A stretch of DNA of 64,000 bases, from contig CAKPBC010000004.1 of assembly GCA_934140155.1 (NCBI GenBank), positions 65,675 to 129,674 on the forward strand, given 5' to 3'. The position numbers and the translations under genes are program-made. The DNA comes from an uncultured Bacilli bacterium. GTDB taxonomy: Bacteria > Bacillota_I > Bacilli_A > RFN20 > CAG-826. Below are positions 48,962 through 61,599 of the stretch, one piece after another (within the stretch, counting starts at the first letter, position 1; the number at the start of each line of letters is the position of its first letter). The notes below the pieces were generated by a model, which was not told where the DNA came from, ran no database searches, and saw nothing but the letters and a program-made list of their open reading frames with translations.

Positions 48962-49288
48962 CTAAAAACATCTATTAATTGCAAAGCAAGCCGTTTCATA
49001 ATCAATATCACCATTTGCGTATAAATGAATAATACGTTTAAGTTTAGGTGATATTTCTTTACCACCTGCCGCATTGATTGCAAACGCTAATTCCTCTTCT
49101 CTTTTTATGACATCGTCAGATTTCAATTCAATTTCAAAAGGAATCTTTCTTTTTATAATTACTTGTTTAAGAAACATAGATACTGCATAGGACATATTTA
49201 ACCCCATTTCTTCTAATATTTCTTCAGCTTCGGTTTTAATGCTTGGCGATAATCTAACATGTAGTGTTTCTGTTTTAATATTGTTCAT
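48962..49288 (-). CDS. RelB/DinJ-family (ribbon-helix-helix) antitoxin-like protein with ~55-aa C-terminal extension
   Basis: TETLHVRLSPSIKTEAEEILEEMGLNMSYAVSMFLKQVIIKRKIPFEI matches the DinJ/RelB RHH pattern. RBS GAGGA precedes ATG at 49286-49288, and its stop directly abuts the Fic-like gene. Confidence 0.65.
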   Translation of the reverse strand: MNNIKTETLHVRLSPSIKTEAEEILEEMGLNMSYAVSMFLKQVIIKRKIPFEIELKSDDVIKREEELAFAINAAGGKEISPKLKRIIHLYANGDIDYETACFAINRCF

Positions 49289-49510
49289 ATATAATATCCT
49301 CAATATTATTGTATCACTTTTGGTACACATTTACAACATTTAATGTAATCATGTCAGAATAAACTCATAAAAAAATAATAAAGCCATAAGGAAATGTGAA
49401 TAGCATAAAATTATGGTTTTTATTATATACAAAAATGTAGTAAAATTTAGATGTAAAAATAATTTTTAATTAATATATATAAATATATACTAATTAAATT
49501 AATATTTTGG

Positions 49511-50115
49511 ATGTATATTATGCCTAGAAAAAACACCTTTATTTCTGAATTAAAAACTATTATTTCTTCATCTGATTATTCTTATGATGATATTCTTGAA
49601 GAAGTTATTCCTATTTTCGTTTCTTTCTTTGAGAATTTAACTGATCTTAGACATGAATCATATATTCTCCATAAATTAGATGATATTATTGGTGTTGTTT
49701 TCTTTGGTATTATTGCTGGTTGTAATACTTGGACTGAAATAGAAGATTTTGGTGTAAATCATTTAAATGATTTAAAAAAGTATTTAGAACTTAAAAATGG
49801 TTGTCCATCACATGATACCTTTAGAAGAGTATTTAATTTAATTTAATTAAGCCTTCGGAATTTGGTGAAATAATGATTATAGTATTAGAGCCTATTATTT
49901 CTAAAGCCGTTAATAATCATATAGGAAATGCTTTTATTGATGAAAATAAAATGATTACTGACATATTATCAATGGATGGTAAAGTAACATTATCTTCATC
50001 AAGGAATAGCATTGTCTCATTAAGATATTTTTCCTTGTCATTGGAATTAATATGTTTTATTAATTCCTTTAAAACACCGATTTTTCCTTTTGTAATTTCT
50101 TCATTTCTTCCATAG
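49511..50115 (+). mobile_element. ISAs1-family transposase remnant (frameshifted/truncated)
   Basis: ORF 49511-49846 encodes the DDE_Tnp_1-associated N-terminal domain (LTDLRHESYILHKLDDIIGVVFFGIIAGCNTWTEIEDFGVNHLNDLKKYLELKNGCPSHDTFRRVF). The next frame (49873-50115) has the IDGK(T/V)L...S motif. No intact DDE domain or terminal repeats were identified. Confidence 0.7.
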
Positions 50116-50378
50116 ACGGTATGACTCATAAAGTTTTCAATATGATTAATGATTTGATTTTGTTTAAAACATGCTTTAGTACATTGACGCAACCGCTATT
50201 GCAGCATGGGTAAAGTAATTCGTGTCATTCATTATCCGTTAATGGAGTACTAGTATTTACTTCATCAATATGTTTTATAACTTGCTCATCAGTTTGACTT
50301 TCATTTCTTTTGCCAATATAAATTTGTGGTTTTCTTAGTTCATCCTTATTTATGCCTATACCTTTTTCTAGAAGGATT

Positions 50379-50963
50379 CTATTTCAAAACTTTCCAATAA
50401 CCATTTTTATTTGCACCAATTCTAGAAATAAATCCAGATTCTTTCAATTGTTTAAGATTCTTTTTTACACCTGGTTCTGATAATGCAGTTATAATCATTA
50501 GTTGATTAATAGTAATAATAGGATTATCTCTCATAGTTGAAATAATATTTTGTTGTGTTTTGTTTAATTTTTTGGATACTTTATTAGATACCTTAAATTC
50601 ATTAACGTCTAACTTTTCAAAAGGTATAGTAACAATTATTTTGTTTTTTTCAATTTGAATAGCATCTTTGCCATGCTTACTAACAATTTTAGGAACTCCT
50701 CTATCGGATCTTTCACTTATTGTAATTATCAATAATTTGTGTAGTTTTTTATCGGTTGAAAATGTACATGGTTGATTGTCAATATCAAACTCATAACATT
50801 CGGAATATAATTCAGAACGCCTTAAATTAAGTACAGAAGGTATTTTATCATCATCGATGATGTCTATCCCAGTTAAAGGTTCACCAGTTTCAACATCACT
50901 AGTCCAAATAGGACCTTGTAAATAATCAAACATTAATTTTACTTTTTCTTTTTGATTCATCAT
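50379..50963 (-). CDS. putative DNA-binding protein with C-terminal RecG-C/Fic-type winged helix (possibly truncated regulator)
   Basis: C-terminal ...LKQLKESGFISRIGANKNGYWKVLK. The downstream 165 bp contain an out-of-frame remnant (RILLEKGIG...TPLTDNE) homologous to the neighbouring wHTH gene. Confidence 0.4.
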   Translation of the reverse strand: MMNQKEKVKLMFDYLQGPIWTSDVETGEPLTGIDIIDDDKIPSVLNLRRSELYSECYEFDIDNQPCTFSTDKKLHKLLIITISERSDRGVPKIVSKHGKDAIQIEKNKIIVTIPFEKLDVNEFKVSNKVSKKLNKTQQNIISTMRDNPIITINQLMIITALSEPGVKKNLKQLKESGFISRIGANKNGYWKVLK

Positions 50964-51102
50964 TTTTTATACCTAGTTTTCAATTTAATAGCTTAGGATA
51001 TGAAATTTTAGGTATTAGATTAAACTTCATTTTTTTTCATAAAAGAAGCTACTCAAAAAAATTGAATAGCTAACCTCGTTCATTATGATTCTCGTCATAT
51101 AA

Positions 51103-51387
51103 TTATTTAATAATTTTCCAGTATCCCTTTTTGTTTGTACCTATTCTTTCGATGAATCCTTTCTCAACGAGAGATACAAATACTCTTGATATTGTTCTTC
51201 TAGATATTCCAAGTTCAACAACTAAAGTATCATATGGAATACTAGGATTATTAATTAATTCGAGCAAAATTCTTTTCTCATTATCAGTTAATTCATCCGA
51301 AAGATTTTTGCCATCATTTTTGCCATCATTTTTGCCACTTGGTATTGTATTATTATATTTTTGCCAAATTATCAATATTTTTGCCAT
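51103..51387 (-). CDS. small winged-helix DNA-binding protein (paralog of the C-terminus of 50379-50963)
   Basis: ...LTDNEKRILLELINNPSIPYDTLVVELGISRRTISRVFVSLVEKGFIERIGTNKKGYWKIIK. It contains the 12-bp tandem repeat TTTTTGCCATCA x2.8 (GKNDGKNDGKN). Start chosen at MAKIL, but the start is uncertain. Confidence 0.4.
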   Translation of the reverse strand: MAKILIIWQKYNNTIPSGKNDGKNDGKNLSDELTDNEKRILLELINNPSIPYDTLVVELGISRRTISRVFVSLVEKGFIERIGTNKKGYWKIIK

Positions 51388-51668
51388 TATCAAATATAAT
51401 TGTTGTCTAAAAAATTGTTGTTTAAAAAGTGTTAAGCGGCAAAATTCAAATCGTGTTAAATCGTGTAAATTTTTAGCACCCTTTAGCTTAAATCGTGTAA
51501 AAGCAAAATAAAAAGCTGTCAATAGAGCCTCTAAATAAAGCCTACTAACAGCCTGTCAAACTAATAAAATTCAATTTTTAAAGTAAAATATCGCATTTTA
51601 AACGTAAATTCTGCTATTTATGCAATAAAAAAGCCTGATAGCATTGAATCAGACCTATTCTACTATTA

Positions 51669-51743
51669 TGGCTGGGGAAGCAGGATTCGAACCTGCGATT
51701 GCCTGATTCAGAGTCAGGTGACTTACCGCTTGTCCATTCCCCA
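51669..51743 (-). tRNA. tRNA-Gln, anticodon CUG
   Basis: The reverse complement gives TGGGGAATGGACAAGCGGTAAGTCACCTGACTCTGAATCAGGCAATCGCAGGTTCGAATCCTGCTTCCCCAGCCA, with U1-A72, anticodon stem CCTGA/TCAGG, loop CTCTGAA and T-arm GGTTCGAATCC. It matches the Firmicute tRNA-Gln pattern. Confidence 0.85.
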
Positions 51744-51824: not shown

Positions 51825-54035
51825 TTATTTTGAACTAAGTTCAATATGTACATCACCATCAACAACATAGTTAGCAGAACTCATGCCATTTCCAGTAACA
51901 CTAATAGCAACTTCTTTGCCATTAATTTTTAATACCGGTGTTATATTATCGTTATGATAAATAGTGATAGTAATCGTTTCACATTTTTCTAATATATTGA
52001 ATGTGTCATCAGTTATATATTCATTATTAGCACTACTAGCATAGCAATAATTATAACTAGCATAATCATTACCAGTTATATAAATAGAATATAATTTTTT
52101 AGCAGATTCAACATTAACAATAGTGACGTTAGTAGTGGATACTTCACCCTTTTCATTTTTCGTTAAATTAAATTTAACAGTAATAATATCTTCTTCATTT
52201 AATGTATTGATATTAGCGCTAGCAAGGAATTGAATCAAGAAATCATTTTCATTATCATCAATAACCATCACTTGATTGTTTTCTAAATCAATTAAAGCAA
52301 CTTTAGCTTTTATTTCATAAACTTTAGTACTTGTTTCATTGTTTTGAAGTGCATTTCCATATTCTTCTAATAAACTCAAGTCAGTAATAACTTCTTTAGT
52401 CGCAGGAATAATAATATCTTCTAAAGATAATTCAACGCTACAATCTTTACTCATAAAATATTTATGGCATACTTTACATTCCCAATATGGAATATTACCA
52501 TCTTTTTCTTCTGTTGCTTCAACTCGTGGAAAATAGTCAATTTTATGTGGAGCGTATTCTTTTCCACTCACTTCAATTGTATCGCCACAATATTCACAAG
52601 TTTCCGTCCAATGTGATACTTCTATGCATGTTGCATCGGTTGCGTCATCATTAAAATGATAAGCGTGATTTTTAGTAGTTTCTTTAGTAATAGAATAACC
52701 ACATACACTACATGTAAATTTTGATGTTCCTGATTCAGTACATGATGCGGCTTTTATAACTTCTTCTATCAGAGTATGAGCAACTTTGCTTTCTTGTTCT
52801 ACTCCACAAATTGAACATTTATGCCAGTGATTAGTGGCGTCATAGGCATATTCGTTCCAAGTGTGTTTAGTTAAAGGTATATCTTCAATTACTTCATCAC
52901 CACATACGTTACATATTTTTTTAACTTGTCCAACTTCTACACAAGTTGCATTTTTTAATATTTCTTCTTTATAATCATGTCCTGGTGCTTTAATAGTTAC
53001 TTCATTTTGTACACGTCCACAAATTTGGCACAAGTAAATAATTTTCCCATCTTCTTCACAAATTGCTTCTTTAACTGATTTTACTATTACATGTTCCCCT
53101 TCGTTACTTTTTTCTTGACAATCGCCATTTAAGCATTTATGCCAGTGGTGTGTGCCGTTATATGTCCAAAGAGATGTAAAATTATGATCATTTGTCTTAG
53201 TTAAACTAGTATGAGTAACAAAATCACAAACAATACATTTATAATCTTGATGGCCATCTTGATAGCAAGTTGATGGGCGGTTATATTCGCAATCAGCTTC
53301 CACGTAATTATGAGCAACCACTACTTTTTGATTACAATTCTTACAATTATAATAATGACCACTTTGTGTTCTACTTACAATATTAGAATAATCTAGATCG
53401 TGTCCAGTTGAAGTAATAGTTTCTTCATAGGAATATCCACAAACACAAGTGAATTTTTTCTTTCCATCTGCTTCACAAGTTACTTCTTTAACTATTTGTT
53501 CAGTAAATGTATGGCTAACTGGCTCAGTATGGCTTTCCTTACATATTTCACAAACTTGCCAATGCGTATTTTCATTATAATTATACTTATTATAATTATG
53601 ATTAGTTTTTTCCAGAATGACTTCTTTAGTCTTTTCACATACACATCGATATATTTCTTTCCCTTCAACTAAGCATGTTGCGTCTATTTTACTTATTAAA
53701 GTAACGTAATCGTGTTTTTCTTTTTCACTTACATAATCACACTTTTCACATTTTTGATAGTGTTCATCTTCCTCGACGACGTATCTTAAAGTGTGCGGTA
53801 ATTTTGTGATTACCTCCGTATAAGAAAAGTCACAAGAATCACAAGTGAAAGTTTTTATTCCTTCTTCTTTACAAGTTGCTTCTTTCGTAATGACAGGTGA
53901 ACTAAAATTATGCTTATGCTCACTTGAACTTATGGAATCATTATTTGAATTAGAAGTATTATTATTACATGAGCCTAATAATCCGCTAGTAAAAACAAGC
54001 ATCCCAATTGATAAAAATTTTAATATTTTTTTCAT
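51825..54035 (-). CDS. large surface lipoprotein made of ~14 alternating Cys/His-rich (zinc-ribbon-like) repeats plus C-terminal beta-rich domain
   Basis: Lipobox LLGSCNNN. Type-1 modules alternate with type-2 modules, each starting with His. Type-1 is H.(F/Y)...(T/S)C...G...(F/Y).C..C... (e.g. HTFTEQIVKEVTCEADGKKKFTCVCGYSYEETITSTG). Type-2 is H.(Y/W)....(HW/HY).C..C...(e.g. HNFTSLWTYNGTHHWHKCLNGDCQEKSNEGE). No known family recognised. Confidence 0.6.
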   Translation of the reverse strand: MKKILKFLSIGMLVFTSGLLGSCNNNTSNSNNDSISSSEHKHNFSSPVITKEATCKEEGIKTFTCDSCDFSYTEVITKLPHTLRYVVEEDEHYQKCEKCDYVSEKEKHDYVTLISKIDATCLVEGKEIYRCVCEKTKEVILEKTNHNYNKYNYNENTHWQVCEICKESHTEPVSHTFTEQIVKEVTCEADGKKKFTCVCGYSYEETITSTGHDLDYSNIVSRTQSGHYYNCKNCNQKVVVAHNYVEADCEYNRPSTCYQDGHQDYKCIVCDFVTHTSLTKTNDHNFTSLWTYNGTHHWHKCLNGDCQEKSNEGEHVIVKSVKEAICEEDGKIIYLCQICGRVQNEVTIKAPGHDYKEEILKNATCVEVGQVKKICNVCGDEVIEDIPLTKHTWNEYAYDATNHWHKCSICGVEQESKVAHTLIEEVIKAASCTESGTSKFTCSVCGYSITKETTKNHAYHFNDDATDATCIEVSHWTETCEYCGDTIEVSGKEYAPHKIDYFPRVEATEEKDGNIPYWECKVCHKYFMSKDCSVELSLEDIIIPATKEVITDLSLLEEYGNALQNNETSTKVYEIKAKVALIDLENNQVMVIDDNENDFLIQFLASANINTLNEEDIITVKFNLTKNEKGEVSTTNVTIVNVESAKKLYSIYITGNDYASYNYCYASSANNEYITDDTFNILEKCETITITIYHNDNITPVLKINGKEVAISVTGNGMSSANYVVDGDVHIELSSK

Positions 54036-54154
54036 AAACTACTCCTTTAACCAAAGAAATTATATAACTATTAAATACTTAAAACAATATAAAATAAGCC
54101 GTGATTTTATTAACCAAATTAAAAGCCCTACCATTATTGATAAGGCTATTAAAA

Positions 54155-54766
54155 CTAATCTAATCTTATTAAGTCACCCATTAATCCAACATAAGCATTT
54201 TTGTTTTTTGCTTCAAATGAATCAGGGCGCGCAATTAACCATTTATTCGTTTGATATATCATTGGATCAAAATCAGAAGTTAAACTACCAACATTTGTTC
54301 CTTTTGGAAGTGCGACTAACATGATGAATCCTTCTTCACTTGCGTGACAAGGAGCAAAATGTAAAGTCGTTGAATATATTTCAACTGCAATTCCTTTAGG
54401 TACTAAGAATGCCTCAGCGTTTTTAGAATCATATTGTCCATTTTTTATATCTTCTACTTTTCCTAAAACAAGAATAAAATCTTCATTTGCCACATTAACT
54501 TCACTACTTTTATGATATTCTAAACAATATACACATTTATTATGTCCTGAGCAAAATCCAAATTGAATTGGCATATTACCAAACATATTTTCCCTAGCAA
54601 ATTCGAATTCAATTGTATTTTCTAGTTCTTCGTCACTTGCGCGATACATAACTCGATTAGCTGGACATTCTTTTGTTTTTAAAATTTCTAAAGTTTTAGT
54701 AAATGGATAATTAATTATTTTTCCAAATTTAGCAAACTTTTCATCATAAATTGAATTTATTTTCAT
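54155..54766 (-). CDS. hypothetical protein, possibly cupin-like (DUF4867-like)
   Basis: 203 aa, Cys/His-containing beta-rich sequence (FGFCSGHNKCVYCLEYH...HFAPCH). The assignment is tentative. Confidence 0.35.
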   Translation of the reverse strand: MKINSIYDEKFAKFGKIINYPFTKTLEILKTKECPANRVMYRASDEELENTIEFEFARENMFGNMPIQFGFCSGHNKCVYCLEYHKSSEVNVANEDFILVLGKVEDIKNGQYDSKNAEAFLVPKGIAVEIYSTTLHFAPCHASEEGFIMLVALPKGTNVGSLTSDFDPMIYQTNKWLIARPDSFEAKNKNAYVGLMGDLIRLD

Positions 54767-55104
54767 AAGTAATTTTTAAATAACTCCCGCATGTTTTTTA
54801 AAATGAGACGCACTCTATTTCTCGTTCTTCCTCGACGTGTTGGTCCATAAATGGATACACCAATAGAGATTTTTCCATCAAGATCTTTAATAAAATGAAT
54901 TGTGGTTTCATATTCGTCAAGAATACCAAATATTTCATTATAATCTTTATCATATTTTATATTATTATAATGATTATTTTCAAAGAATTCTTTAACAATT
55001 TTTGCACAATTATCCACATTTGTTTTCACTTTTATTGGATGTAAGGATGAATCTCTACTATCTTCATCACTCGTGGAAAAAGTTTCAAATATAGCTAGTC
55101 TCAT
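54763..55104 (-). CDS. hypothetical protein
   Basis: 113-aa ORF with a 4-nt overlap with the next gene, between the sugar-ABC ATPase and 54155-54766. Confidence 0.35.
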   Translation of the reverse strand: MRLAIFETFSTSDEDSRDSSLHPIKVKTNVDNCAKIVKEFFENNHYNNIKYDKDYNEIFGILDEYETTIHFIKDLDGKISIGVSIYGPTRRGRTRNRVRLILKNMRELFKNYL

Positions 55105-55118
55105 AGCGGCCTCCTTTT

Positions 55119-56444
55119 TTAGATTCTATTTGTTGTTGTCGGATCAAAGAAATGAATTTTATTCATATCAAATTGATAATCTAATCTATTGCCTGGGTTA
55201 ATTTCATTCGCAGAACTTGTCTTAATTACAACACGTTGTCCACCAATATAACCATAAACAATTAATTCGTGACCTAATAGTTCTGATACATCACATTCAA
55301 TGTTTATATCTGTGCCAGGATTTTTATTATTTATATCTTTACTAATATAAATATCTTCTGGACGAACACCTAAAACGATTTCTTCTAAATTGCTTAATTG
55401 TGCTTCGTGTTCATTAGTTAAAGCATCCATGTTTTCTTTAAATCTTTTTTCAAGTTCTTCAAGATGTTTTTCACGTGCTTCTAATTTCTTTTTGTAATCA
55501 CTAGGAATTACTTGGTTAACTAGTGCTTCTTTATCATGTTCATATTCAGTTTTTAAAGATTCTATCTCTTTTTCAAATTTTTCGTTAATACTTATTTCTT
55601 TATTTTTGATAAAGTTCTTTAACATATTAGTTTTTTCTTTATCTAAAGCAATTTTAACTTCCGAATTTGTATTTTCATCTTTAATAACAAAATTATTTTT
55701 AACTAATTTACCTTTAAAGAAGTTCATGGCTGGTGAGCCAATAAATCCTCCAACAAATATATTTGCCGGTGTGTTATATACTTCTCTTGGTGTGCCGATT
55801 TGTTGAATATAACCATCTTTCATAACCACAATACGACTTGCCATAGTCATAGCTTCGGTTTGGTCATGAGTAACATAAATTGTGGTTGCTTCAACACGTT
55901 TATGAATTTTAGCAATTTCTGTACGCATTTGGACACGGAGCTTAGCATCTAAGTTACTTAAAGGTTCATCCATTAAGAATACTTTTGGATTTCTAACGAT
56001 TGCTCTACCTAAAGCTACACGTTGTCTTTGTCCGCCTGATAAAGCCTTAGGCTTACGATTTAAGTATTGTGTTAAGCCTAAGATTTCCGCGGCTTCTTCA
56101 ACACGACGAGCAATTTCTTCTTTTGGTACTTTTTTTAGGCGAAGACTAAATGCCATGTTTTCATAAACAGTCATATGAGGATAAAGCGCATAATTTTGGA
56201 AAACCATCGCGATATCACGATCTTTAGGTTCTAAATCATTTACTAATGTATCCCCAATATAAAGTTCTCCACTAGTAATTTCTTCTAGTCCTGCGACCAT
56301 ACGGAGTGTGGTAGACTTACCACATCCAGAAGGTCCAACGAATACAATGAATTCTTTGTCTTGTACTTCTAAATTAAAGTCAAAGACAGCTTGTACATTG
56401 TTATCGTAAATTTTATTAATATTTATAAATTTTAATGTTGCCAT
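55119..56444 (-). CDS. sugar ABC transporter ATP-binding protein (MalK/MsmK family) with coiled-coil insertion in the C-terminal regulatory domain
   Basis: Walker [11 protein letters not shown]-loop [13 protein letters not shown], signature [14 protein letters not shown] and Walker [12 protein letters not shown]. An ~80-aa Glu/Lys-rich insert ([28 protein letters not shown]...) sits before the final beta-barrel. Confidence 0.85.
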
Positions 56445-58270: not shown

Positions 58271-60151
58271 TTATTTTTCTGTGTATTTTAATAATCTATC
58301 AAATGTTCCTGTATAGTCATTAGTGGAATAGAAACCCGCTAATGTATTACGGTAGTTACGTACAGTTTGATTTAAGTAGTTTGCCCAGCAACCTTCCGAA
58401 TCAATCCAGTCACCATCTTTTAAATACCACCAGTCACCTGGAGTTTGATATTCTGCTCCATCGATGAATATTTCTAAGTTTTGTGGATCTTTTCCTTCTT
58501 TAACATCTTGTTTAACTAATTCAGAAGCAATTGATTTTTGGTTTGGAATAATTGTTCCAGCTTCAGCAAGAATTCTTTGTCCTTCTTCTGTTGTAGCAAA
58601 TTTTGTGAATAAATAACCAGCATTTTTAATTGGTGATTTACTCCATACGCACCAAGCATTTGAGCCACTATGTGCTCCCTTGATACCTTTAACTGTTACA
58701 TTATCATTTTCATCAAATTCTTTATACATTAACATTGGAGCCACATCCCAACTTCCTTCATCCATTGAATCACGGAAGTCTTGGACACAAGCACGAATAT
58801 CAACAAGCATTGCCACGTGCTTATTTGAGAAATAGCCAGCACGACCATCAGTAGAGAATATAGCCGGGTTAGGAGAAATCTCTTTATTCATGATTTTCAC
58901 TTGTGCATTACCATATTTTTCATTTTCTGCTGGAGTAAATGTTGTTACCTCATTACGCATGATTTGATTATTTTTGGTAATACCCGCTTCTTTTCCACCT
59001 GCAAGTTTATAAGGTACTATTTCCCAGAATATATCAGTAACACCTTTTTCACTAGCATAATAGTGATTGCTATCTTTTATTCCTGATAAAGACATATATT
59101 CGCTAAATGCGCGGCGTTGAGAAGGTAATACTACACATTTACTAGCTAAATCATCAGTCAAGAAGAATTTATCTTCATAAGAAATAATTTCGTTTACCTC
59201 GTAAGAATTATTATTAACAGTTAACGCTTCTTTTACTTTGTAGTTAACAGTAGCGTCTGCTAAAGTGAAAGTATAGTAACCACCATTATATTTAGAATCC
59301 GATGAATCCAAATATTGAATACAATCGCCACCAACAGAGAAGCCATAGTTAAACCACCATGATGTTAAGAAGCCTTCTTTACAACCTGCTGCTTTATTTT
59401 TGGGGTTGGATTGTAATTTATTAGCAAGCTCTGCACATTCTTGCCAACTCATTTCAATTTTGTTATTAAAATAATACTTTCCATCGCTATATTTAAAATA
59501 TGCTTTCTTAGGATATGTAGTTTTGTTAGCGCTATTATAAGCATCAATATCTTTTTCATAAATTGATATTTCTTTAACATTAGCGTTAGCTAAGAATGTT
59601 TTATTATAATAAATTGCGGTTGAACCAGTTCCCTTAGGAATTCCATAATAATGAGAATTTTCACTATTAGATGTTGTTGTTACTGGATCATATTTATATC
59701 TTCCAACTCCGCCTTCAAACATATCTGCAAGTTGACTTTGCATATTAAGTTCAGGATATTTACTATTAATATAAGGATCTAAATTCTCCATAAATCCTAA
59801 AGTAACGAATTGCTTATAATATTCATCTGAAGCTAAGAAAACATCTGGACCTTGTCTACTAGCAAGGGTGGTTTTCATTTTTTGTTCCCATCCACTCGCG
59901 GCATATGGAACGAATTTAGCGCTAATATTATAATCTTTGTACTTTTTATTAAAAGCACTTACTAATTGTTCCATCCTCGTTCTTTCATCACCATCACAAT
60001 ACCCCCATACTTTAATTTTTGTACCTTCTTTTGATACCATTAGATTTCCATCTGAGTCAAACGAAATATCTTCTCCTGAATCATTAGAATTACAACCAGT
60101 TAATGCTGTTAAAGCAATTAACATCGATATCAATAAACCTTGTTTTTTCAT
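58271..60151 (-). CDS. extracellular sugar-binding lipoprotein of the ABC transporter
   Basis: Lipobox LTALTGCNS, 626 aa, immediately upstream of the two permeases and the ATPase. Confidence 0.7.
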   Translation of the reverse strand: MKKQGLLISMLIALTALTGCNSNDSGEDISFDSDGNLMVSKEGTKIKVWGYCDGDERTRMEQLVSAFNKKYKDYNISAKFVPYAASGWEQKMKTTLASRQGPDVFLASDEYYKQFVTLGFMENLDPYINSKYPELNMQSQLADMFEGGVGRYKYDPVTTTSNSENSHYYGIPKGTGSTAIYYNKTFLANANVKEISIYEKDIDAYNSANKTTYPKKAYFKYSDGKYYFNNKIEMSWQECAELANKLQSNPKNKAAGCKEGFLTSWWFNYGFSVGGDCIQYLDSSDSKYNGGYYTFTLADATVNYKVKEALTVNNNSYEVNEIISYEDKFFLTDDLASKCVVLPSQRRAFSEYMSLSGIKDSNHYYASEKGVTDIFWEIVPYKLAGGKEAGITKNNQIMRNEVTTFTPAENEKYGNAQVKIMNKEISPNPAIFSTDGRAGYFSNKHVAMLVDIRACVQDFRDSMDEGSWDVAPMLMYKEFDENDNVTVKGIKGAHSGSNAWCVWSKSPIKNAGYLFTKFATTEEGQRILAEAGTIIPNQKSIASELVKQDVKEGKDPQNLEIFIDGAEYQTPGDWWYLKDGDWIDSEGCWANYLNQTVRNYRNTLAGFYSTNDYTGTFDRLLKYTEK

Positions 60152-60168
60152 AATGTTTCCTCCATTAA

Positions 60169-61599
60169 TTATTTATTTAGAAGGCTAAATAATTTATTAT
60201 TAGCCTCGTCTTCCGTTAAAAGTTTATAATTTGAAAATCTTGCAGTTGCAGAATATGAGCAAATTCCAATAATGCTTTCTTCTACATAATCATCAATTGA
60301 CGTGACTGAATGTAGTTCAATTTGTTCTTTTGGGACAAATGCCTTATTCTCTAGTGTTATTTCACTAGTATTAGCAAAACATAATTCATCATTAACTAAG
60401 AAACCTAATGTATCTCCATTACGGAAAAGTGCTAATTTAACACCGTACTTTTCAAAATCATCACTAGGATTAACAAAATCTTCATTAGTGTAAGTTCCGC
60501 CTTTTTCCACTGTCCAGTTCCAACTTAAGTTATCTAAAGAACGTTGCGTTACACCAAATCGACCTTTTTCATTTTTCTTAACATAAAGTGTGAATCTATT
60601 TTGAAAGAAATATGTTGTTAAGCCAATTTTAGGACTATCACTTTTATTTCCGCCAATTGCGTCAATAAACACTTCAAAATAATAATTTGTTCCACTAAAG
60701 TCTTTGATAAATGCAATAGAAGATTGGGAATTAGAATTTAACAATACACTACCAGTTCCATCAGCTTTATCATTACTTAAATCAAAGCCATAATTTGGGA
60801 AATACATATCATTTTCTCCAAAAAATTCACCTTCTGGAGTAATATTTTGAGGACTATTTCCTTCGCCTTTTTTAATTGGAACCCAAGTATGTGGTGTCGC
60901 TTGGAATGCTAATTTTTTAGTTGTTCTAATTCTAAATGTTGCTGTTTCACTATCACTTGTACTAGGAACACGATTATATGCTGGATAAACCATTAAACCA
61001 TCAACATCATCTAAACTATTAAAGCCCAACTCATACCAAGGAATAAATAATTCAACATTGAATCCTTCACAAGTTCTTGTGTTAAATTCTCCAAGTAACT
61101 TGGTAGCAAATTGTCCATCAAAATATGAACTTGTATATGTACTAGCGCTTCTTACTCCACATAGTTTAGTAAAACTCCCACCAGCAGCTATACGATATTG
61201 TAATGTTTGATTATCAATTTTTGTTTTATTAATATCATTGAAGAATAATTCGACCGATGAGTTGTAATATACTTTTCGGTGACTATTATAAGCAATAATA
61301 TTATCTTTTACTTCAACGTAGCAATGCATACCTTCTTTACCAAAATATAAATAGGTATCCATATAAATTTTGCTAGTGCGATCATTATTAAAATATAATC
61401 GATGCACTGCTTCTCCATATTTACTTTCTTTTTCTCCATCAATAGTTAATCCATCTGCATTTGTAAAATCTTTTAAAGAAGATGGGATTGGATCTTCATT
61501 TTTATAATCATAACTTCCAAATGGGTTACTAGCGGAATTACAGCTACTTAATAATAAGCATAAAAATGGCATGAATAATAAATGTTTTTTCTTTTTCAT
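60169..61599 (-). CDS. lipoprotein with putative carbohydrate-binding (CBM9/DOMON-like) beta-sandwich domains
   Basis: Lipobox LLLSSCNS, 476 aa, aromatic-rich beta-sandwich-like sequence. The family assignment is tentative. Confidence 0.4.
   Translation of the reverse strand: MKKKKHLLFMPFLCLLLSSCNSASNPFGSYDYKNEDPIPSSLKDFTNADGLTIDGEKESKYGEAVHRLYFNNDRTSKIYMDTYLYFGKEGMHCYVEVKDNIIAYNSHRKVYYNSSVELFFNDINKTKIDNQTLQYRIAAGGSFTKLCGVRSASTYTSSYFDGQFATKLLGEFNTRTCEGFNVELFIPWYELGFNSLDDVDGLMVYPAYNRVPSTSDSETATFRIRTTKKLAFQATPHTWVPIKKGEGNSPQNITPEGEFFGENDMYFPNYGFDLSNDKADGTGSVLLNSNSQSSIAFIKDFSGTNYYFEVFIDAIGGNKSDSPKIGLTTYFFQNRFTLYVKKNEKGRFGVTQRSLDNLSWNWTVEKGGTYTNEDFVNPSDDFEKYGVKLALFRNGDTLGFLVNDELCFANTSEITLENKAFVPKEQIELHSVTSIDDYVEESIIGICSYSATARFSNYKLLTEDEANNKLFSLLNK

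Follow-up and report, generated by a model that had tools for sequence, protein, structure and literature searches.

We consider it probable that a lipoprotein encoded in the window (the whole 64,000-nucleotide stretch of DNA that was analysed) is a zinc-stapled, lipid-anchored stalk of ~50 nm that displays a binding head. It would be a 'periscope' protein, anchored by lipid at Cys23, on the surface of a low-GC uncultured bacterium of the human gut that belongs to the Bacilli/Mollicutes. Past a flexible linker, 14 three-stranded up-and-down beta-sheet modules with little hydrophobic core would lie end to end, probably kept in register by tetrahedral structural metal sites, 14 in all and most likely occupied by zinc. 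The resulting stiff rod, roughly 50 nm long when scaled from about 37 Å per module in the model of an IgA protease discussed below, may hold an OB-fold and beta-sandwich head, with a putative role in ligand binding, off the membrane. In a strict anaerobe, zinc staples could take the place of the disulfides found in the extracellular rods of other organisms.

The open reading frame (51825..54035, minus strand) begins with ATG and specifies 736 amino acids, including 41 Cys and 31 His, arranged as a lipobox signal peptide, an N/S-rich linker, 14 Cys/His modules and a beta-rich C-terminal domain. Direct reading of the sequence agrees with the original prediction of a lipoprotein. A lipobox signal peptide opens the protein (MKKILKFLSIGMLVFTSGLLGS-C23; aa 1-23, LLGS-C23; 53967..54035, minus strand), and the N/S-rich linker comes next. 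The lipobox, MKKILKFLSIGMLVFTSGL-LGS-C23, fits the pattern [LVI][ASTVIG][GAS]C, and C23 is the predicted lipidated anchor; lipobox-like N-termini are also found in the homologues P0012-P0018. The linker (aa 24-39; 53919..53966, minus strand) was assigned as flexible from its composition and from a pLDDT <50 at residues 15-40. The array of 14 modules (aa 40-532; 52440..53918, minus strand) was delimited by motif parsing, AF2 strands, conservation and homology.

An RBS, AAAGGAG (54048..54042, minus strand), lies 6 nt upstream of the ATG. A consensus scan found a promoter-like site, TTAATA-16-TATATT (54113..54086, minus strand), which is weak evidence, promoter-like matches in the region being no more numerous than in shuffles. 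Farther upstream, just past the DUF4867 gene, there is a terminator-like hairpin with a 10-bp stem and then a T-rich tail (54124..54147, minus strand). The upstream side also holds, on the same strand, a GH43/ABC sugar-uptake locus. Directly downstream is tRNA-Gln (CTG) (51669..51743, minus strand), itself followed by a terminator-like hairpin (51631-51656). The gene thus sits, as first described, between tRNA-Gln and a glycan-utilisation locus, but this adjacency is not kept in distant homologues: synteny with the glycan locus was seen in near-identical strains only and is lost in a homologue of 33% identity. A functional tie to the glycan locus was ruled out, given the limited synteny and the terminator-like hairpin and promoter-like site between the genes.

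Motif parsing resolved two alternating module types delimited by His, as well as the Cys3His and Cys2His2 ligand sets, all as originally proposed. The predicted ~14 units proved to be eight type-1 modules (His-x10-15-Cys-x9-Cys-x1-2-Cys-x12-14-His), five type-2 modules (His-x10-14-His-[WY]-x2-Cys-x2-4-Cys-x8-His) and a terminal variant (H497...YWEC520KVC523), in the order T1-T2-T1-T2-T1-T2-T1var-T2var-T1-T1-T2-T1-T1-terminal variant, each with one CxxC knuckle. Raw counts of the type-1 and type-2 motifs were 10 and 5, respectively, compared with means of 0.07 and 0.004 in 5000 shuffles of the same residues; the type-1 count includes overlapping His starts and corresponds to eight distinct modules. 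Mean pairwise identity between modules is 28% and, judged by their sequences, the modules are old and divergent. A DNA-level repeat check found no DNA tandem repeat in the module array, which ruled out recent repeat expansion or phase variation.

The AF2 model of the full-length protein (md0705a088261; mean pLDDT 78) is all-beta, and its low pTM (0.32) is as expected of an extended chain. DSSP assigned three strands to each module and no helices between aa 42 and 530, with pLDDT mostly 70-90. On these AF2 strands each module is predicted to form a three-stranded antiparallel up-and-down sheet. A Foldseek search of the full-length model against the PDB returned noise only (TM <0.1, beta-propellers at the top).

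The C-terminal region, originally described as a beta-rich domain of ~200 aa, was predicted by AF2 to be just that. The head model (m3209e790f506; pLDDT 84) consists of a short helix with a five-stranded OB-fold (aa ~547-643; 52107..52397, minus strand; AF2 and Foldseek) and a beta-sandwich recognised by its AF2 strand pattern (aa ~649-735; 51831..52091, minus strand). Foldseek matched the head to the OB folds of LysRS, RPA and Ten1, the E-values running from 7e-4 to 2e-2 and TM being close to 0.5 for the small targets. The best match of a head profile against the PDB was non-significant (E 0.62, to the beta-sandwich region of a GH2 enzyme). A profile search for relatives of the head brought in only four further proteins, none annotated, so the head belongs to a very small family. 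It is a putative ligand-binding domain.

Against Pfam and NCBIfam the whole protein gave nothing beyond a sub-threshold TnsD match, and neither database holds a model of the repeat. Single modules, a module pair and an idealised three-module consensus gave only sub-threshold knuckle matches in Pfam. A two-module profile matched 75,102 protein clusters (17,380 at E≤1e-30), and at E≤1e-10 the repeat family contains >48,000 clusters. The matched clusters are nearly all secreted Firmicutes surface proteins. The density of Cys/His knuckles, which had been thought unusual for extracellular proteins, is therefore common in Firmicutes, occurring in tens of thousands of clusters. In the relatives, the repeat has a signal peptide or an anchor (SLH, lipobox) on one side and, on the other, functional domains of many kinds, including CAP, transglutaminase-like, cohesin, LRR, S8 peptidase and Big_2 domains, an arrangement typical of stalk domains.

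Repeats of this type first drew notice in 2025, when two short domains were described in a single IgA protease, that of Thomasclavelia ramosa (IgAse/ThomasA, M64; UniProt Q9AES2; sequence of PDB 9qa6). Two 2025 papers describe these domains, ZBD1 and ZBD2 (CTD2 and CTD4), as an uncharacterised metal-associated "periscope" fold predicted to bind zinc; an EMBO J paper on M64 peptidases leaves the C-terminal domains aside. PDB 9qa6 resolves residues 32-876 only, and the ZBD domains are known from AlphaFold models and SAXS alone. Our family profile A1, searched against PDB sequences, matched 9qa6_A with E 3e-17 in three stretches: ZBD1 subdomain I, ZBD1 subdomains II and III, and ZBD2. The type-1 (E 1.8e-5) and type-2 (E 3e-6) profiles, used separately, matched these regions too, the type-2 profile with full-length matches at chain positions 906-939 and 1075-1103. 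Both module types are thus homologous to the IgA protease ZBD modules. The relationship was found only by profiles, since a single-sequence phmmer search against the PDB yielded nothing significant. A literature search on RYYR-CCHC and extracellular zinc-ribbon repeats found nothing relevant. The protein adds to a barely characterised kind, the only described relative being IgA protease ZBD1/ZBD2.

We argue from the sequence patterns that each metal site bridges two neighbouring modules and is not closed within one. By this staple rule, module n would supply the first two ligands from the CxxC knuckle at its hairpin tip, and the third would be the His at the boundary of modules n-1 and n. The fourth would come from the base of module n-1: from its first Cys if that module is type 1, or from the His of its H[WY]xxC motif if it is type 2. 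The first module of an array has none before it, and there a [C/H]-x-His cap would give the fourth ligand; here H40-x-H42 is the N-terminal cap. The last module would not need its first Cys, and Glu509 stands in its place. The rule defines 14 sites with 56 ligands: S1 (H40, H42, C65, C68), S2 (C55, H81, C96, C99), S3 (H92, H108, C131, C133), S4 (C121, H146, C162, C165), S5 (H158, H175, C197, C199), S6 (C187, H212, C231, C234), S7 (H227, H242, C267, C270), S8 (C257, H284, C301, C306), S9 (H297, H315, C336, C339), S10 (C326, H353, C375, C378), S11 (C365, H391, C407, C410), S12 (H403, H420, C442, C445), S13 (C432, H457, C480, C483) and S14 (C470, H497, C520, C523). Under it, a Cys3His site would follow a type-1 module and a Cys2His2 site a type-2 module. 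Among homologues of 29-41% identity, the 56 proposed ligands are 99% conserved, compared with 33% elsewhere, and 36 of the 38 Cys of the mature repeat region are proposed ligands. C249, H262 and H275 possibly form an accessory site. Zinc is the most likely metal, although in the gut Fe(II) or another ion could be bound instead.

Covariation across the family points to sites that bridge modules, with the caveat that regular expressions defined the array-start and last-module classes, which variant modules contaminate. [C/H]-x-His stands at 38% of array starts and 7% of internal boundaries (p 7e-17). Of the modules without the first Cys, 60% close their array, compared with 11% of modules that have it (OR 12, p 1e-113). 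Where module n-1 lacks its first Cys, the boundary that follows carries a cap in 50% of cases, compared with 2% otherwise (OR 49, p 6.5e-83). The alternative, which we regard as fairly unlikely, is that the modules are mini zinc ribbons, each complete in itself like a bead on a string, with a type-1 module using its own starting His and three Cys and a type-2 module its own pair of His and pair of Cys. Counted so, the ligands of a module also total four. The PLoS Pathogens text, which gives 2His+2Cys at all three ZBD1 sites and a 3Cys+His site in ZBD2, has a description of ZBD1 that can be read in this way, and ZBD1 subdomain I is said to resemble distantly the TFIIS zinc ribbon. Self-contained modules, however, leave unexplained the caps at array starts, the loss of the first Cys specifically in last modules and the caps that make up for a missing first Cys one boundary on. 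They would also leave the terminal module with only three ligands, as the position of its first Cys is Glu or Asp in all homologues. Moreover, by geometric inference from the AF2 strands, the first Cys and the His of H[WY] lie at the far end of the hairpin from the CxxC of their own module.

Binding of extracellular DNA or RNA by the array and OB-fold head, with zinc-finger-like modules serving uptake, salvage or biofilm, is very unlikely in our judgement. There is a local likeness to the C2H2 linker and knuckle TGEKPYxCxxCG (in designed and PRDM9 fingers, with a summed E of 3e-8), and the best structural matches of the head are nucleic-acid-binding OB folds. Each finger match, however, is weak and limited to the hairpin-knuckle; the modules are predicted to lack helices, which does not fit the ββα finger fold; and the acidic repeat region (E 10%, D 5.6% and R 0.8% in the whole protein) is unfavourable for DNA. 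OB folds, besides, take many kinds of ligand, and the repeat serves as a spacer in varied enzymes and adhesins. The original prediction offered a metal-binding or metal-scavenging protein or a zinc-stabilised adhesin, and the last of these comes near to the explanation we prefer. Scavenging, storage or buffering of metal, with exchangeable sites for zinc acquisition, found no support, even though about 14 Cys/His sites per chain would be exposed at the cell surface, and we hold it to be highly improbable. Four protein ligands per site would saturate the coordination and leave no open position, as was argued for the homologous domains of the IgA protease; the ligands are part of a conserved beta scaffold that thousands of unrelated multidomain surface proteins share; and the neighbouring genes (GH43, the sugar ABC system, DUF4867 and tRNA-Gln) include none for zinc transporters. 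Hardly conceivable is a metal-free repeat held by cystines, as in EGF-like rods. The repeat is extracellular and Cys-rich, but the type-1 module has an odd number of Cys (three), the His are invariant, and at the cap and the fourth-ligand position Cys and His can replace each other, which speaks for metal ligands and against disulfides. The gut Firmicutes that carry the repeat are strict anaerobes. The IgA protease showed no disulfides, and a reducing agent improved its monodispersity. An electron wire was ruled out by inference alone, as the metal centres would sit about 3.5 nm apart.

For the zinc-stapled stalk, the cap, the loss of the terminal first Cys and the Cys/His compensation together give a testable wiring diagram of the metal sites. 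The gene is one of many, but it is a clean and long example, with 14 modules in a single run. If confirmed, the repeat family would be a zinc-based alternative in anaerobes to disulfide-stabilised extracellular rods. Uses could be found in annotating thousands of 'hypothetical' gut Firmicutes surface proteins, in choosing crystallisable constructs and in asking if host zinc limitation alters bacterial surface architecture. A bolder proposal, unlikely in our estimation, is that the repeat is a general 'metal zipper', a widespread unannotated extracellular domain in which each zinc clips two consecutive modules, so that ambient zinc governs how long and how stiff thousands of surface proteins of Firmicutes are, this one with its 14 sites among them. 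If this were true, stalks would extend with zinc and collapse under host zinc sequestration, and the anaerobic gut would hold a large unrecognised extracellular pool of zinc.

The closest known system is the T. ramosa IgA protease. Both module types and the terminal variant 'YWxCxxCxK[YW]F' align with it, type-2 modules followed by type-1 modules share a boundary His, and HxH caps (HTH and HIH in IgAse) open the arrays. In both proteins each module is predicted to be an up-and-down sheet of three strands, Cys/His sites are proposed at the interfaces, and the location is extracellular with a proposed stalk role. IgAse, however, carries Ala at the first-Cys position in the last module of both its arrays and has only 3+2 modules, with an Ig-like barrel between them, located C-terminal to the protease and beside a sortase anchor, whereas the present protein has 14 uninterrupted modules, an N-terminal lipid anchor and a non-enzymatic OB-fold/beta-sandwich head. 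When the staple rule is applied to ZBD1/ZBD2, the totals agree with the published ones (four 2His+2Cys sites, one 3Cys+His site and 11 Cys), but the placement of the 3Cys+His site does not: the PLoS Pathogens text puts it in ZBD2 and the rule in ZBD1.

The original description of the repeats as zinc-ribbon-like has to be revised. They share with zinc ribbons such as the TFIIS C-terminal domain, with rubredoxin and with L36 a CxxC(G) knuckle at the tip of a beta-hairpin, and rubredoxin knuckles gave weak profile matches (E about 2e-3 to 0.1). In a classical zinc ribbon, however, two knuckles of the same domain close one site, whereas here each module has a single CxxC knuckle and the other two ligands are lone residues, one of which the adjacent module probably supplies. 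Even with the idealised consensus, no Pfam zinc-ribbon model scored above threshold. Eukaryotic tandem C2H2 fingers are similar in having tandem Cys2His2-type units and a hairpin-knuckle G-x-K-x-[YF]-x-C-x2-C-G. They differ in their alpha-helix and in the order and spacing of ligands (C-x2-4-C-x12-H-x3-5-H, compared with His...His-x3-Cys-x2-Cys...His here), and the present modules are extracellular with putative module-bridging sites; Pfam zf-C2H2 does not match the protein. Pfam PF23674 (RYYR-CCHC; gathering score 27 bits) does not match it even at E≤10; some relatives with many modules give partial matches to positions 30-51 of its 79, the knuckle segment only.

In architecture, the protein resembles the SasG/Aap G5-E periscope proteins, which have an anchor, long single-layer beta-sheet repeats without a hydrophobic core and a distal functional domain, with the same presumed role of projecting a head away from the cell. 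Neither sequence nor fold is related, and Cys/His sites play no part in holding the SasG/Aap rods. In Aap, zinc mediates dimerisation via acidic/His surface sites. Length variation by recombination is unlikely in the present protein, because its repeats are 28% identical and without a DNA-level repeat. A comparison with periscope proteins and fibrillar adhesins was drawn in PMC12415215. That layout, which marks a functional class and not a homology family, is complete here, with an anchor, a stalk array and a putative binding head.

The open reading frame at 51825-54035 of the window (minus strand) encodes a 736-aa protein that opens with a signal peptide and lipobox (LGS-C23) and continues into an Asn/Ser-rich linker. 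Of its 41 Cys and 31 His, 38 and 29, respectively, fall within residues 40-532. Pattern parsing resolved eight type-1 modules (His-x10-15-Cys-x9-Cys-x1-2-Cys-x12-14-His), five type-2 modules (His-x10-14-His-[WY]-x2-Cys-x2-4-Cys-x8-His) and one terminal variant (H497...YWEC520KVC523HKYF), in the order T1-T2-T1-T2-T1-T2-T1var-T2var-T1-T1-T2-T1-T1-terminal. The type-1 and type-2 motifs matched 10 and 5 times (the former count includes overlapping His starts of the eight distinct modules), against means of 0.07 and 0.004 when the same residues were shuffled, which bears out the original prediction of a Cys/His repeat. The modules share only ~28% identity, and a search for a DNA tandem repeat beneath the array found none, so the array is old rather than a recent expansion. 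AF2 modelling of the full-length chain gave an all-beta structure (mean pLDDT 78) with three strands per module.

A whole-protein search gave at least 3618 matches among 8000 scored candidates. The matching proteins bear signal peptides and up to 27 type-1 modules each, and fusion partners of the repeat are CAP, SLH, InlB-B-repeat, cohesin, LRR, S8 peptidase, Big_2 plus transglutaminase-like and other extracellular domains. A two-module profile scanned over 1.84 billion cluster representatives matched 75,102 proteins at E<=1e-3, 48,037 at E<=1e-10 and 17,380 at E<=1e-30; eukaryotic C2H2 proteins may be among the weakest matches. The repeat is common, and the premise that such proteins are rare was wrong. 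Pfam-A has no model for the repeat; zero families were found in two homologues, P0022 (27 modules) and P0178; other multi-copy repeat proteins matched Pfam only via non-repeat domains, and NCBIfam gave no match to the lipoprotein. One weak relative (30% identity, E 5e-10) lies outside Firmicutes, in a Spirochaetales MAG, and could reflect horizontal transfer or a binning error.

When profiles of the type-1 and type-2 modules were run against all PDB sequences, both singled out one chain, 9qa6_A, the IgA protease of Thomasclavelia ramosa, the one relative described so far; the remaining matches were weak and knuckle-only, to C2H2 fingers and rubredoxins. A profile of the lipoprotein's own family matched 9qa6_A in three stretches (E 3e-17). 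Subdomain I of the protease's predicted zinc-binding domain ZBD1 aligns with the terminal variant module, subdomains II and III align with a T2+T1 pair, and ZBD2 aligns with another stretch of the profile. The cryo-EM structure of the protease resolved residues 32-876 only, so no module of the repeat family has an experimental structure.

An up-and-down topology would have the second hairpin carry the CxxC knuckle at its tip, adjoining the module's start-His, and the type-1 first Cys, or the His of type-2 H[WY]xxC, at the opposite end, adjoining the following boundary His. On this arrangement, each metal site is predicted to comprise the base ligand of module n-1, the boundary His and the CxxC of module n; the sites thus probably bridge consecutive modules. 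The retrieved homologues were put to three independent sequence tests, all of which fit this prediction. A Cys or His two residues before the first boundary His, which would cap the array, occurs at 38% of array starts versus 7% of internal boundaries (p 7e-17; other offsets ~1-3%, with the array-start class contaminated). The lipoprotein has H40-x-H42, with H or C at position 40 in homologues, and the IgA protease arrays likewise begin with caps, HTH and HIH. A module with a non-Cys residue at the first-Cys position ends its array 60% of the time, versus 11% for a module with Cys there (OR 12, p 1e-113). In the lipoprotein's terminal module this position is Glu509, and it is Glu or Asp in all homologues; in the protease the last modules of both arrays have Ala. 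Finally, where module n-1 lacks its first Cys, a [C/H]-x-His cap appears at the next boundary in 50% of cases, versus 2% otherwise (OR 49, p 6.5e-83). These cap, last-module and compensation statistics count against self-contained zinc ribbons, which we disfavour. At these positions Cys and His replace one another freely, which favours metal ligation over disulfides; stabilization by disulfides is contradicted both by this exchange and by the invariance of the His.

Applied to the lipoprotein, the bridging rule yields 14 proposed sites, eight Cys3His and six Cys2His2, which take up 36 of the 38 Cys of the repeat region. Across eight homologues of 29-41% identity, conservation is 99% at the 56 ligand positions and 33% at other positions. 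For the IgA protease, the rule reproduces the published totals of four 2His+2Cys sites, one 3Cys+His site and 11 Cys; however, the 3Cys+His site falls in ZBD1 by the rule but in ZBD2 according to the text of the paper. The seventh module of the lipoprotein (residues 242-284; window ~53184-53312, minus strand) has three additional conserved residues, C249, H262 and H275. Homologue P0018 has lost all of them together, suggesting that they may contribute three ligands to an accessory metal site. C532, downstream of the last knuckle, is likewise conserved and falls in none of the proposed sites.

The window has a GC content of 29%. The closest genome record is an 'uncultured Mollicutes bacterium' (86% identity), followed by an 'uncultured Bacilli bacterium' from Hadza gut samples (82%); remoter homologues (29-40%) come from Coprobacillus sp. 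CAG:826, Christensenellaceae and other Clostridia MAGs. Upstream genes on the same strand encode a GH43 enzyme, a 476-aa protein without a Pfam match (60169-61599), a solute-binding protein and two permeases; further genes there encode an MsmX-like ATPase, a 113-aa protein and DUF4867. Between DUF4867 and the lipoprotein start codon lie a terminator-like hairpin, then a promoter-like site and a strong RBS (AAAGGAG). This neighbourhood is retained in a 93%-identity strain. A 33%-identity homologue is instead flanked by polysaccharide deacetylase, Spore_YtfJ and peptidase S11 genes, so the glycan locus is not taken as a guide to function.

Several neighbours have features of their own. In the GH43 sugar-uptake locus, the solute-binding protein, beside the 476-aa ORF (together 58271-61599, minus strand), is unusually long (626 aa), with SBP_bac_8 matching its N-terminal part only. 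The MsmX/MalK-like ABC ATPase (55119-56444, minus strand; 441 aa) has a charged insertion of ~70 aa between the MalK OB and TOBE domains ([24 protein letters not shown]...[25 protein letters not shown]), which is unusual for the family and is probably a coiled coil. The 113-aa ORF (54763-55104, minus strand) has no Pfam match and overlaps the DUF4867 gene start by 4 nt, an arrangement kept in the 93%-identical strain (L029). Downstream of the lipoprotein gene lies tRNA-Gln, and the segment beyond it varies between strains (window 49000-51650 versus L029 12217-14700) and looks like a variable islet. In the window it encodes two small paralogous winged-helix proteins (50379-50963 and 51103-51522), both terminating in G-x-NK-x-GYWK, the latter with a GKNDGKNDGKN repeat; L029 has RelB, Fic and two genes of no assigned function.

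The C-terminal head (residues 533-736), modelled separately (pLDDT 84), is predicted to contain a short helix and five-stranded OB fold, then a beta-sandwich. Foldseek matched the OB fold to those of LysRS, RPA and Ten1 (E 7e-4 to 2e-2; TM ~0.5 on small targets). Few proteins share this head: searching with its profile gave only four more, none annotated; remoter full-length homologues have an extra third domain of ~140 aa. The OB fold and the finger-like knuckles weakly suggest nucleic-acid binding at the cell surface, but the all-beta modules and the acidic composition count against it. Metal scavenging, proposed in the original prediction, found no support. Most likely, the lipoprotein is a lipid-anchored periscope protein. 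Scaled from ZBD1 (~110 Å for three modules), its 14 modules would form a rod of ~50 nm displaying the OB/beta-sandwich as a putative binding head. Giant proteins with the repeat (P0121-P0268) have 3,000-7,583 aa and 40-67 matched two-module stretches; they would form surface fibres hundreds of nm long, if the per-module length holds.

The family is of interest as very large, unannotated and structurally unsolved, now with a testable rule for the wiring of its metal sites. Two 2025 papers deal with the ZBD1 and ZBD2 regions of the IgA protease. In one, where they are named CTD2 and CTD4, CTD2 is a fully extended rod by SAXS, and 'an uncharacterized periscope domain fold' in which zinc is purely structural is proposed (PNAS, PMC12415215). 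The lipoprotein gene is an unusually regular, new addition to a kind only just noticed in the literature, rather than a new kind.
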